Shown here piece by piece: positions 59,586 through 64,000 of a stretch of DNA of 64,000 nt. The notes under the pieces are model-generated. The model searched no databases and was not told where the DNA came from. It saw nothing but the letters and a program-made list of their open reading frames with translations. Made by a program: the position numbers and the translations under genes. Origin of the DNA: an uncultured Clostridia bacterium (GTDB lineage Bacteria; Bacillota; Clostridia; TANB77; CAG-508); assembly GCA_944393465.1 (NCBI GenBank), contig CALYAG010000008.1, forward strand, positions 6,990 through 70,989, written 5' to 3'. Position 1 is the first letter of the stretch. Each line of letters starts with the position of its first letter.

Positions 59586-59999
59586 TTAATACAAAATATT
59601 CTCTGCTCTATTTTTATAATTTTCAAGAAGTTCATATGCCTCACTTATTGAACAATTATCAATATCAATATTTGACAAATCTTTAAGTAATTGCATTGCT
59701 TTATCATTTGCCTCATATTGTTTGTAAGTAAATATAATTTGAGAACTTGGATCAATAACTTTTACAGAATAATTGCAGTGAGATAAAATGCGGGAATATT
59801 TTTCAAGAGAAGAAGATGGAAAACCACACTTAACAACATCGTTTGTAAGATTTGTAAGTTTTAAACCTAGAATATCAGAAGCTATAATTGCATCTTTATC
59901 AATAAAAAGTAAAAAAATACCTGACTTAAATAAATACAAAACATTATCTTCTTTTGAAGATTTTTTCAAATAACAATATACATCATATAGTTTACTCAT
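59586..59999 (-). CDS. MutS-domain-I-like small protein (DGR-flanking, copy 1)
   Basis: 137 aa. VLYLFKSGIFLLFIDKDAIIASDILGLKLT....VKCGFPSSSLEKYSRILSHCNYSVKVID aligns by eye with the MutS N-terminal mismatch-binding domain (ILLFYRMGDFYELFYDDA...LT....PMAGIP...YL..L...G.VAI.EQ). AAGAGG RBS. Confidence 0.6.
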   Translation of the reverse strand: MSKLYDVYCYLKKSSKEDNVLYLFKSGIFLLFIDKDAIIASDILGLKLTNLTNDVVKCGFPSSSLEKYSRILSHCNYSVKVIDPSSQIIFTYKQYEANDKAMQLLKDLSNIDIDNCSISEAYELLENYKNRAENILY

Positions 60000-60181
60000 A
60001 ATAACCTCTTTTCTTTAGCAATTAACATAATTTTAATTTGACTATTAAAAATTATACACTATTAAAAAATAAATAACAACAAAGTTGGAAGGAATAGGAA
60101 CAAAATGGATAAAAATAAAAGTAGATAGTTAAAAGTAATGAATTATTAAAAAAACTTAGTAAAGAATTTTGGAAAAAGTTG

Positions 60182-60210
60182 TTGACAAATAATGTAATTA
60201 AATATAGAAT
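60182..60210 (+). promoter_or_regulatory. Sigma-A-type promoter upstream of the leader ORF and the DGR target
   Basis: TTGACA (60182-60187), a 17-nt spacer, then TAGAAT (60205-60210). Confidence 0.5.
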
Positions 60211-60260
60211 AAAAACGAAAGTTAGAATAAACATTCAAAAGAAATGGGAGAAAATAACAT

Positions 60261-60329
60261 ATGAAAATCGCTGAAACCCTTGCGGCTGTACACACACACA
60301 CACACACACACACACACACACACATGTAA
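60261..60329 (+). CDS. Candidate 22-codon leader ORF MKIAETLAAV(HT)5HM containing the (CA)17 tract
   Basis: GGGAG lies 10 nt upstream of the ATG. The ORF reads the CA repeat as alternating His/Thr codons and stops at 60327-60329, about 30 nt before a terminator hairpin. Coding status is unproven. Confidence 0.3.
   Translation: MKIAETLAAVHTHTHTHTHTHM
60291..60324. repeat. (CA)17 dinucleotide microsatellite
   Basis: 34 nt of perfect CA repeats, read directly. Confidence 0.97.
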
Positions 60330-60360
60330 TTTAATAAACGAAAAAACAAACATAGAAATA

Positions 60361-60414
60361 AAAAAGCTATGCTTATTAAACAGTGCAAAAATTGCTTAAT
60401 AGGCATAGCTTTTT
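60361..60414 (+). terminator. Strong hairpin terminator between the leader ORF and the DGR target gene
   Basis: 19-nt arms aaaaagctatgcttattaa / ttaataggcatagcttttt (1 mismatch) with a 16-nt loop. The 3' arm ends in T5. Confidence 0.6.
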
Positions 60415-60588
60415 GTTATGCAAATTAAACATTATGTAAAGCAAACGTAAATAAAAGCAAGCAGATATTGTGTATAAAAACAGCGTATGAAAGTTTAAAA
60501 ATTCTAACAAAGATACAGGTTTTAAATTTATAAAATAAAACCGCAATAATTAAAAATACAAAATTTAAACGAAAGAGAGGAAAAGAAA

Positions 60589-61989: not shown

Positions 61990-62193
61990 TAAGAGCTAGT
62001 ATAAAATACCTGAAGAGCATAAAATAAAGGGAAGAAAAGCTAGACACCATAAATCCAAGAAGGCCTTAGGTCTTCTTGGGTAAAACCGCAAAATGTGGAA
62101 AGAAATTATAAATTTGAAATAAGTTCTTGATAAAATTACATCATGAATGATAATAAATAAAATAACTAAAGAAATAATAAAGAGGATAATTAT

Positions 62194-62646
62194 ATGGGAA
62201 TAGTTGGTGTAGTAACTGAAGTAAAAAAGGTTCATCCAAAAGATTTAACAATAATAGATATAGGTAAATTCTTTTATGCATATGGTAAAGATGCTTATGT
62301 GTTATCGTATTTATTTGGATATAAATTAACAAAAATTGAAGCTGAAAATGTATATTCATGTGCTTTTCCAAAACAATCATATTCAAAAGTTATTTCAAAA
62401 TTAGAAAATGATAAAATTAATTATTTAATACTAGACAGACACAATAACTATAATGTAGACGAGAAAAGTGATAATCGCAATTTGAATAATTATGACAAAT
62501 ATTTTGAAAAAGCCAAAGTCTTTGTTAATATAAGAATAAGAATTGAAAACATATATAATTATTTAATGAAGAATATTGAAACAGAAAATATAAATAATTT
62601 GTTAAAGAATATGGAAGAAATTTTGAATGGAAAAAGAAAAGTTTAA
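62194..62646 (+). CDS. MutS-domain-I-like small protein (DGR accessory, copy 2)
   Basis: 150 aa. DLTIIDIGKFFYAYGKDAYVLSYLFGYKLT......YSCAFPKQSYSKVISKLENDKINYLILD follows the same MutS N-terminal pattern. AGAGGA RBS. Overlaps avd by 20 nt. Confidence 0.6.
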   Translation: MGIVGVVTEVKKVHPKDLTIIDIGKFFYAYGKDAYVLSYLFGYKLTKIEAENVYSCAFPKQSYSKVISKLENDKINYLILDRHNNYNVDEKSDNRNLNNYDKYFEKAKVFVNIRIRIENIYNYLMKNIETENINNLLKNMEEILNGKRKV

Positions 62647-62989
62647 GATAATAAATTTTATAAGAGAATTAATACTATATATAGATAAAAATTTAGATAA
62701 TTTTCCTAAAAAAGATATTGAATTAAAAAACAGAATAAGAAATACTAGCTATGATTTGCTGGAAATAGCATATATAGCAAATACCACACAAGATTTAGAA
62801 TATAAAACAAAACTAATAGAAAAAATAATTGCAAAGGTAAAAATAATTGATTTTTTACTTAATATATGTTATGACAAACAAATAATTAATAGTAAAAAAT
62901 ATGTAAAATTTGGAGAACGATTGGATGATATTGTAAAGTATGCTAATGGTTGGAAAAACACTTTAAATAAGAATAATAATATTAATTAG
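62627..62989 (+). CDS. avd: DGR accessory variability determinant (Avd-like four-helix-bundle protein)
   Basis: 120 aa. NFPKKDIELKNRIRNTSYDLLEIAYIAN matches the FPK..-containing helix pattern of Avd/S23-like four-helix-bundle proteins. Sits immediately upstream of the TR. Confidence 0.75.
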   Translation: MEKEKFKIINFIRELILYIDKNLDNFPKKDIELKNRIRNTSYDLLEIAYIANTTQDLEYKTKLIEKIIAKVKIIDFLLNICYDKQIINSKKYVKFGERLDDIVKYANGWKNTLNKNNNIN

Positions 62990-63073
62990 ACAAAAATGAA
63001 ATTCACAAATGATTTATGGTTTTGTTTACAAATAGTTATACTATTTTGTAATAAATAGGGCGTGGTTGATGGG

Positions 63074-63233
63074 TGGCTTTCTTCGCCTGGAGTCAATGAG
63101 AATGATGGCAATGCCAACTTCGGACCTGGTGCGGTCAACGTTAACGACGGTATGAGCATAGCTAACAGTGGCAACAACACGTTCAACTCGAACGGAAACG
63201 TGAACAACAACGGCTTTGGTCTTTGTCCCGTAG
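63074..63233 (+). repeat. DGR template repeat (TR)
   Basis: 160 nt, adenine-rich, with 15 AAY codons in the VR reading frame. Noncoding, although the track reports an ORF at 63062-63313. Confidence 0.9.
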
Positions 63234-63666
63234 CTTCTATAAACTGTGGTTATGTAAGTAATGCTTGCATAAGAGATAATATAGAAACAAACCATTGTCC
63301 TTTCGCTAGATGATTTTCACTGTTATCAAATTGAATTTTATGGAACATTAATTTAAGTATTGAGATAAATTAAGTGAAAATCTATTAAATAGCGATAAAC
63401 TAAAAGCAGATAGATATGGTTGTTAGTAGCATAATTATATTCCGCTATATAAAATGCGAAAGGGAGTTATATCTTAGAACTGCTTTTAAGTAATCTAACA
63501 AGATTACTTTTTCAAATTTAATTTTACGAATGATAAAAAGCAATTTCTTGTTGCGTATAATTTTTTATCCATTAGTTTAAATAAAGTCATATGTATTTTT
63601 ACATATGACTTTAAAATTAATTTGAACAATATAAGCCATAATCAAAGTTAGAAGGTTTTAATAAAA

Positions 63667-64000
63667 ATGAAAAGAAAAAATAATTTATATAATGATATTT
63701 GTAAAATGGAAAATATACAATCTGCATTTAATGAAGTATGTAGAAATACTAAAAATAAACGAAAAGTAAGAAATTATAAGGAATATAAATGTATTTATTT
63801 AAGTAGGATATATAACATTTTGAATGAAAAAAGATATGTTGTAGGAAAGTACAATGTGTTTACAATCTATGAGCCAAAGGAAAGACGAATTGTAAGCCAA
63901 TCACTTCAAGACAAAATAATAAACCATTTGGTAAGTAGATACATTCTTTATCCAGCGCTTTTGCCATGCCTTATTCCAAGTAATGTGGCAAGCATAGTGG
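63667..64000 (+). CDS. DGR reverse transcriptase (N-terminal part; continues beyond the window)
   Basis: MKRKNNLYNDI...IQSAFNEV..., FTIYEPKERRIVSQSLQDKIINHLV (RT motifs 1 and 2). Open to the window end. Confidence 0.8.
   Translation, partial: MKRKNNLYNDICKMENIQSAFNEVCRNTKNKRKVRNYKEYKCIYLSRIYNILNEKRYVVGKYNVFTIYEPKERRIVSQSLQDKIINHLVSRYILYPALLPCLIPSNVASIV

Follow-up and report, generated by a model that had tools for sequence, protein, structure and literature searches.

Diversity-generating retroelements (DGRs) transfer sequence from a template repeat (TR), by way of a reverse transcriptase (RT), to the variable repeat (VR) of a target gene. MSL, which encodes a small MutS-like protein, is a recognised DGR accessory gene, and cassettes that contain it constitute Architecture D (Wu et al., 2018; PMC5758913). 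Msl has been reported in DGRs of Bacteroides, and host MutS lowers retrohoming 5- to 10-fold there (bioRxiv 10.1101/2024.11.15.621889); both the gut biome and the Firmicutes are enriched in DGRs (PMC8144416). Here we describe a DGR at the end of a 64-kb stretch (the window, G+C 28%) of contig CALYAG010000008.1 from an uncultured Clostridia bacterium, whose region 59400–64000 was read together with a listing of its open reading frames (ORFs). The cassette runs in the order target-MSL-Avd-TR-spacer RNA-RT; the order target-msl-avd-TR-RT, already proposed in a sequence-only reading of the stretch, holds, each gene being identified by a domain match or as an ORF and the RT being completed on near-identical contigs. 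We conclude that the locus is very probably an intact DGR of the MSL-containing architecture, active now or until very recently. The element is of a known kind, an MSL-type cellular DGR of gut Firmicutes, and such elements have already been catalogued by the thousand; the locus adds modest but genuine new leads, namely two MSL paralogues, a recurrent variable (CA)n leader and a pilin-like target with an unmatched fold.

The VR (61786–61942, + strand, 157 nt) lies at the 3′ end of the target coding sequence (60589–61989), ending before its final 16 codons, and the TR (63074–63233, + strand, 160 nt) holds 43 adenines. A Smith–Waterman local alignment of the two contained 23 substitutions, all 23 of them at TR adenines, which is what had been counted by hand in the sequence-only reading; the chance of such an outcome is approximately (43/160)^23 = 8e-14. 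That reading had left unstated the single gap of the alignment, 3 nt in the VR (TR GGCAACAACACG against VR GGC---GACACG), though its lengths of 157 and 160 nt implied it. The gap is sited at an AAC-AAC repeat (window positions 61880–61885 against TR positions 63171–63176). VR and TR agree fully over their final 25 nt, and the first mismatch outside the adenines is TR 63234 (C) against VR 61943 (T), both as first described. The 3′ end of the VR (61920–61942, 23 nt) resembles an initiation of mutagenic homing (IMH) sequence, in that its single A was never mutated in the 14 loci introduced below and divergence starts from the next base. Each end of the repeat has exactly two copies in the 64-kb window, where shuffled sequences predict no occurrence, and no further VR was found in the window. 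G+C content amounts to 50% in the TR and 62% in the VR, against 28% in the window. Among the TR adenines, 38 of the 43 occupy codon positions 1 or 2, and substitution at none of the 43 can create a stop codon; the TR thus offers 23 variable codons, 15 of them AAY, with a potential of about 3e22 peptides.

Natural variation was assessed in public metagenome assemblies (14 loci for TR and VR, the first nine of which were pooled for substitution counts, and 19 near-identical full-length targets). The TR is identical in all 14 loci and the VR occurs in 10 distinct forms. The sequence-only reading had proposed that reads mapped over the VR be searched for polymorphism restricted to TR-adenine positions; on the assemblies, used here instead of reads, the nine pooled loci contained 166 substitutions at TR adenines against 2 at other bases, and variable columns comprised 39 of the 43 TR-adenine positions against 2 of the 117 others. 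The rest of the target gene showed 3–10 differences per 1,197 nt among the same nine loci, and 18 different VR peptides were encoded by the 19 full-length targets. Two contigs of equal length from two samples (L089 and L090) were identical over 7,404 nt bar 23 positions, all of them in the VR and 22 at TR adenines, so that VR turnover must be faster than background substitution. Reading the targets alone, we also observed a TTT to TGT change (Phe to Cys, GFG to GCG; approximately window positions 61924–61926) within the otherwise invariant VR end in three of the 18 VR peptides (P0002, P0123 and P0131).

These comparisons bear on the alternative of a fossil element, in which a DGR that no longer works in this lineage diversified the VR in the past, leaving the VR/TR differences as a historical trace. 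We judge this highly improbable given that L089 and L090 differ solely in the VR across 7.4 kb, that the TR, Avd and the RT N-terminus are perfectly conserved among the 14 loci, and that the RT fragment of the window is nucleotide-identical to the intact 314-amino-acid gene of another contig (L006). It is favoured by the position of the catalytic part of the RT outside the window and by a further contig, L002, where the RT has two internal deletions and the VR still differs from the TR at 21 adenine sites, VR divergence therefore being able to outlive RT function.

The RT ORF begins at 63667 (+ strand) and leaves the window, as the sequence-only reading had noted, so that its N-terminal 111 codons (63667–64000) are contained here. 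An exact look-up of the Avd protein yielded eight metagenome contigs (L001–L008), and on seven of these (L001 and L003–L008), near-identical to the window, the gene is complete: 314 amino acids with the motifs IGNMTSQ at residue 185 and YQDD at residue 217, which supplies the full, YxDD-bearing RT expected beyond position 64000. The 111 residues in the window are identical to those of the full protein, and the L006 gene matches at the nucleotide level over all 334 shared bases. RT class was judged by sequence search against the PDB; a generic RVT_1 match and sub-cut-off matches to group II intron, DRT and retron models are uninformative in this respect. Bordetella phage bRT (8ub7) was the best match, with E 6.8e-27 and a margin of some 19 orders of magnitude over all other solved RTs (group II intron, 4e-8; retron-type, about 1e-6). 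That the RT instead belongs to a retron, a group II intron or a DRT/Abi system, with TR and VR an unrelated duplication under diversifying selection, is barely conceivable: the partial NCBIfam matches that would favour it (group II, 72.6 bits; Drt3a, 65.8 bits; retron St85, 50.8 bits), to which matches with PADLOC DRT models are to be added, all lie far below their cut-offs of 300, 200 and 235 bits respectively, selection on a duplicate could not produce adenine-only substitutions (166 against 2), and both Avd and RNA elements like those of BPP-1 are present. The earlier view that this RT is not of the retron or group II type is therefore upheld.

A scan for related RTs over one genome per GTDB species recovered at least 153 loci, all in uncultured gut Clostridia, Bacilli or similar metagenome-assembled genomes (MAGs), including Clostridium sp. 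CAG:508 and CAG:451, and the closest RT among the GTDB representatives was 88% identical to that described here. In the 80 of the 153 loci that were kept for counts, avd was present, in its conserved position, in 77 and an avd-adjacent MSL gene in 71, and a simple scan detected an adenine-biased TR/VR pair in 46.

The avd gene (62627–62989, + strand) encodes a protein of 120 amino acids (pI 9.3) that scores 40.0 bits against Pfam bAvd, a value equal to the cut-off of that family, and 43.8 bits (E 2.6e-11) against NCBIfam DivGenRetAVD, under the cut-off of 80; it had no meaningful match among PDB sequences. MSL1 (62194–62646, + strand; 150 amino acids, pI 9.1) overlaps avd by 20 nt and matches Pfam MutS_I with E 2.4e-8. 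The msl and Avd-like ORFs that the sequence-only reading had placed upstream of the TR are thus where it put them, and the number of MSL paralogues is two, not one: MSL2 (59586–59999, − strand; 137 amino acids, pI 5.4) matches the same family with E 2.8e-9, and both genes score above its cut-off. No match to an HRDC domain was found in any ORF of the cassette. MSL2 is weakly similar to MSL1 and distinct from it, and is 38–46% identical and orthologous to a second MSL that adjoins the RT in approximately 16 related cassettes. It is present in the window and in L006 and absent from L001, L003–L005, L007, L008 and L089–L092, an indel of about 600 nt bearing MSL2 (window 59363–60180 against L001 7353–7650) separating two haplotypes of the locus.

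When the avd-to-RT intergenic regions of the relatives were aligned, strongly conserved non-coding blocks emerged around the TR. An nhmmer profile located the spacer element directly 3′ of the TR in 38 relatives, and this element stays beside the TR for every placement of the RT, be it downstream, upstream or on the opposite strand. In the window it corresponds to a structured spacer RNA at 63234–63512 (+ strand, as are all the helices below), for which conservation, covariation and the minimum free energy (MFE) fold all provide evidence. Covariation was tested in 34 cassettes, with the TR interior excised, on seven helices picked from the alignment by eye (H1–H7): 92% of cells were paired, against 38–50% with the partners slid; changes on both sides occurred in 37 of the 50 pairs; and the covariation score was 0.43, compared with 0.05–0.09 for slid partners and 0.16 for shuffled partners, none of 500 shuffles reaching the observed value. 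An MFE fold of the window sequence alone recovered the same helices. Rfam contained no family for the spacer RNA or for the leader described below.

H1 (63057–63067 with 63290–63301) is a long-range duplex that brackets the TR and is 97% paired, with compensatory changes in 7 of its 11 pairs. In H2 (63235–63241 with 63280–63286), which resembles a primer duplex, the nucleotides immediately 3′ of the TR pair with the spacer, and H3 (63250–63258 with 63264–63272) is a 9-bp hairpin similar to an Avd-binding stem-loop; each of these three helices is 91–97% paired with compensatory changes in the 34 cassettes. The spacer continues with H4 (63304–63308 with 63390–63394), which includes a window-specific insertion, H5 (63402–63409 with 63480–63487), H6 (63412–63417 with 63469–63474), H7 (approximately 63429–63432 with 63454–63457) and a terminal hairpin followed by a U-run (63488–63512). 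The ribonucleoprotein (RNP) of the Bordetella phage DGR comprises a stop duplex, a primer duplex between TR and spacer (Sp) and an Avd-binding stem-loop (Handa et al., bioRxiv 10.1101/2023.10.23.563531), and H1, H2 and H3 correspond to its stop duplex, template:primer duplex and Avd-binding stem-loop respectively. A pairing of AACCAT with ATGGTT inside the spacer, proposed by eye, was rejected; the relatives do not support it, and AACCAT pairs with the 5′ flank of the TR. Compared with its relatives, the window is longer by the H4 insertion and by some 150 nt, holding a further hairpin, that separate the terminal hairpin at 63488–63512 from the RT start. This additional hairpin (63583–63612; AAAGTCATATGTA...TACATATGACTTT) is a perfect 14-bp stem shared with L009 only.

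Taken with the known systems, these elements suggest the following sequence of events. The TR transcript and its flanks would fold such that the long-range duplex brackets the TR, the short duplex forms between the spacer and the sequence just 3′ of the TR, and the 9-bp stem-loop sits in between. By analogy with the Bordetella phage RNP, RT and Avd would bind this TR-spacer RNA, and we infer that cDNA synthesis is cis-primed at the 3′ end of the TR, misincorporates opposite adenines and stops at the bracketing duplex. The cDNA would then replace the VR at the 3′ end of 60589–61989, anchored by the invariant 23-nt IMH-like end, recoding up to 23 codons in the C-terminal, beta-rich tip of a surface protein that its type IV pilin-like N-terminus may hold in the membrane or in a filament. 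The two MutS-domain-I proteins may bind the heavily mismatched heteroduplex and shield it from host mismatch repair, a role suggested by the effect of host MutS on retrohoming in Bacteroides.

The target gene (60589–61989, + strand) encodes 466 amino acids (pI 4.7), with a pilin-like N-terminus, a 355-residue ectodomain and the VR at its C-terminus. It has more than 2,000 homologues, none of them named or assigned a Pfam domain, and searches of the target against Pfam and NCBIfam found no domain. The N-terminus (..KGMQG/ITLIALVVTIIVLLILAG..) is of the type IV pilin kind, with a family consensus KxxxGITLIALVVTIIVLLILAG; Pfam N_methyl gave a weak match in 45 of the 65 family members and no match in the window protein itself, and the sole matches of the family profile among PDB sequences were the N-termini of type IV pilins (E 0.006–0.15). 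Residue +5 after the putative cleavage site (G/ITLIA) is a nearly invariant Ala throughout the family, Glu5 being absent. Tip pseudopilins such as GspK typically lack this Glu. No gene for a prepilin peptidase, assembly ATPase or platform protein was found among the window ORFs in a general domain scan, and pilin processing, like a ligand for the variable tip, is putative.

AlphaFold (AF2) modelled the whole target with a mean predicted local distance difference test (pLDDT) score of 84, and residues 112–466 (60922–61986) with a pLDDT of 94.6 and a predicted TM-score of 0.92; the VR forms the last five beta-strands of the modelled protein. Three Foldseek searches (the PDB twice, and BFVD once with the whole-protein model) returned no match better than E 0.5, and Pfam detected nothing over the VR region or the TR-encoded peptide, even at E 10. 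A C-type-lectin (CLec) scaffold for the VR, Mtd/TvpA/FGE-like or DUF1566-like, is thus unsupported by Foldseek and Pfam, although very remote CLec similarity can escape Foldseek. The motif YWLSS...GFGLCPVV is reminiscent of DUF1566/CLec2 VRs. The model suggests that the ectodomain is possibly an undescribed fold, common to the unannotated homologues. The target stop codon is followed 66 nt later by a 12-bp inverted repeat (62055–62079, + strand), a possible terminator of the target. It was also considered as the counterpart of the GC-rich hairpin found directly 3′ of the VR in BPP-1; it was the only candidate, lies about 113 nt downstream of the VR, and equivalence was not established.

The DGR is chromosomal, given its housekeeping flanks, the lack of tRNA genes in the 64-kb window, a plasmid search that gave no near match to the locus, and an RT at most 38% identical (range 30–38%) to phage relatives against up to 88% for those in cellular MAGs. 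Its host is an uncultured, low-GC (28%) gut Clostridia-type bacterium. On the left of the cassette lie an Rpn/PDDEXK_2 nuclease gene (58568–59362, identified by its domain match), Zip, ABC transporter and GntR genes and, further left in the window, the RNase P RNA, der, gpsA, pta, two ackA genes and an aspartokinase-like gene. On the metagenome contigs, the RT is followed by a 357-amino-acid ORF and then by uvrB, a glycoamylase gene, uvrA and cmk. The ORF of 357 amino acids was rejected as a second target or accessory gene: it has no domain and no VR, and is not conserved beside related RTs.

The sequence-only reading had seen the adjoining Rpn gene and no phage structural genes, and domain scans of the flanking genes agree, with no capsid, tail or integrase family among them. 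A DGR borne by a prophage or other mobile element, with a phage receptor-binding protein as its target, is very unlikely on these grounds, the more so as the target anchor is pilin-like and not of tail-fibre architecture; we rejected a phage origin, phage RTs being only distant relatives. In its favour stand the adjacent gene of a recombination-promoting (Rpn) nuclease, the many gut DGRs that are phage-borne (PMC8144416), and contig L002, which shows that the cassette (from approximately window 60180 to the RT stop) can stand amid unrelated genes and must thus have been moved or exchanged as a unit. There, positions 7600–11600 contain the same cassette, from promoter to RT stop and about 99% identical, flanked by an abhydrolase gene and a 489-amino-acid ORF on the left and by DUF6320, sortase and CLIPPER adhesin genes on the right; this copy could represent a relic, a second cassette that is served in trans, or an assembly chimera. 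Since it sits in a different context without Rpn, the nuclease gene beside the chromosomal cassette of the window is an incidental neighbour, and a functional tie between the two was discarded.

Several observations weigh against the reading of the locus as an intact and active DGR. Avd scores at the borderline; the target has neither a C-type-lectin nor another known fold and no Pfam domain over its VR, unlike characterised DGR targets; and a terminator-like hairpin and some 150 nt stand between spacer RNA and RT start, which makes transcription of the RT hard to explain. Activity is deduced from differences between assemblies, and the decayed RT of L002 implies that not every copy is autonomous. 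Lastly, the VR is one codon shorter than the TR in 4 of the 19 targets, which simple replacement of the whole TR does not predict. These targets include those of the window, L005 and L006, their adenine patterns differ on both sides of the gap, and L005 belongs to a different flank haplotype yet shares the deletion; the simplest idea is that recurrent slippage on AACAAC during cDNA synthesis or integration explains the codon loss.

Upstream of the target lies a distinctive leader. The best promoter-like site of the region (TTGACA-17-TAGAAT, 60182–60210, + strand, an 11/12 sigma-70-like match) is the putative start of a leader/target transcript, and the cassette's identity with L002 begins just upstream of it. 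It is followed on the same strand by a leader ORF, MKIAETLAAV(HT)5HM* (60261–60329), holding an (AC)17 tract (60290–60324), and, between this ORF and the target, by a hairpin with a U-run that resembles a terminator or attenuator (60360–60417; stem of 19 + 4 bp). A 176-nt leader segment folds as RNA with −30.1 kcal/mol (z = −3.2). The (AC)17 tract is the only dinucleotide run of at least five units in the 64 kb, and among near-identical loci its length is 6, 10, 17 or 18 units, the window and L006 being one unit apart. The leader ORF measures 19–46 amino acids according to frame: with 6 or 18 units it runs into the hairpin, and with 10 or 17 units its end falls about 30 nt short of the hairpin. 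The DGR targets of three relatives (L022, L037 and L043) are preceded by the same arrangement of a short ORF with a terminal (His-Thr)n stretch, an (AC)11–17 tract and a strong hairpin. All six (AC)/(GT) runs of at least six units in 798 kb of related loci fall in DGR control regions, three upstream of targets (L022 at about 9720, L037 at about 2698 and L043 at about 632) and three about 40 nt upstream of msl (L056 at about 304, L057 at about 5228 and L078 at about 2787).

Judged from its sequence, the (CA)n leader may hypothetically be a slipped-strand, translation-coupled and phase-variable attenuator, though the target may have a promoter of its own. Simple sequence repeat (SSR) phase variation of surface adhesins in Neisseria, Haemophilus and Helicobacter (SabA) is comparable: there, too, the leader or control region of the gene for a surface protein holds a long dinucleotide tract, whose length differs among near-identical strains and shifts a reading frame; here, by contrast, the tract lies in a separate leader ORF before a hairpin and not in a promoter spacer or an adhesin ORF. 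A literature search for DGRs joined with SSR phase variation returned no linking paper among the top matches. A rather improbable reading would combine two stochastic systems on a single surface protein in these gut Clostridia and Bacilli: a slipped-strand (CA)n switch that, by deciding whether ribosomes run into the hairpin, gates transcription of the target (or, in some relatives, of the msl-avd-RT operon), and a DGR that rewrites the ligand-binding tip. The target would then be a Glu5-less, tip-type modular type IV pilin whose VR scaffold is unrelated to the C-type-lectin and Ig folds of known DGR targets.

Elsewhere in the window, a 35-nt tandem repeat (49191–49302, 3.2 copies) lies about 90 nt upstream of a 169-amino-acid ORF (49394–49903) whose L001 orthologue bears a Pfam ToxN_toxin domain and which is followed by a MazG-like gene; the region 49191–49903 looks like a type III toxin-antitoxin system made up of a ToxI-like RNA and ToxN. 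A 71-nt direct repeat in two copies (24111–24254, 92% matches) was observed upstream of pta, which is followed by two adjacent acetate kinase paralogues of 400 and 411 amino acids (25350–27817).

The locus leaves the concept of the DGR unchanged, and its uncultured host limits immediate testability. It gives a natural view of a chromosomal DGR at work, in which otherwise identical genomes from different samples differ only at the TR-adenine positions of one gene, and through its covariation-backed RNA structure the RNP model from the Bordetella phage is extended to a distant lineage that is AT-rich. The element belongs to a clade, large and unannotated, of uncultured gut Clostridia and Bacilli (at least 153 RT loci and more than 2,000 target homologues), and supplies material for the study of the MutS-like accessory protein, through its two paralogues, of the regulation of cellular DGR targets, for which the recurrent, length-variable (CA)n leader is a candidate, and of the range of VR scaffolds, through an ectodomain that is confidently modelled and matches no known fold.

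In common with the membrane-bound targets of cellular DGRs (Roux et al., 2021), the target described here starts with a transmembrane or signal segment, continues with an extracellular domain and carries the VR at its C-terminus. It differs in its anchor, which from its sequence would be a type IV pilin-like class III signal/alpha1N segment, and in an ectodomain that matches neither a Pfam family nor a PDB fold despite a pLDDT of 94.6. The MSL-type DGRs (Architecture D, including that of Legionella pneumophila, and the Msl DGRs of Bacteroides described by Macadangdang et al.) are similar in encoding a small MutS-domain-I protein with avd and no HRDC gene, and in being cellular elements that diversify surface proteins (PMC5758913; bioRxiv 10.1101/2024.11.15.621889). 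Unlike them, the present cassette and about 16 relatives contain two MSL paralogue families, MSL1 being next to avd and MSL2 adjoining the RT or, in the window, lying upstream of the target on the opposite strand; moreover, the host is a Gram-positive-type Clostridia MAG, and its target belongs neither to the lipoproteins (LdtA) nor to the type V pilus tips.

The prototype, the DGR of Bordetella phage BPP-1 (mtd-avd-TR-brt), is phage-borne and diversifies a tail-fibre tip, whereas the element described here is chromosomal, carries two extra MutS-domain-I genes, acts on a cellular surface protein that is pilin-like and in which no C-type-lectin fold was detected, encodes an RT that shares 30–38% identity with phage RTs, and has a spacer of 433 nt (about 140 nt in BPP-1) with a terminator-like hairpin before the RT. 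Both systems nevertheless have in common the adenine-specific transfer from TR to a VR at the 3′ end of the target, an invariant and GC-richer, IMH-like 3′ end, an Avd protein together with a small RT bearing IGxxxSQ and YxDD motifs, for which bRT is the best solved relative, and RNA elements analogous to the TR:Sp primer duplex, the stop duplex and the 9-bp stem-loop.

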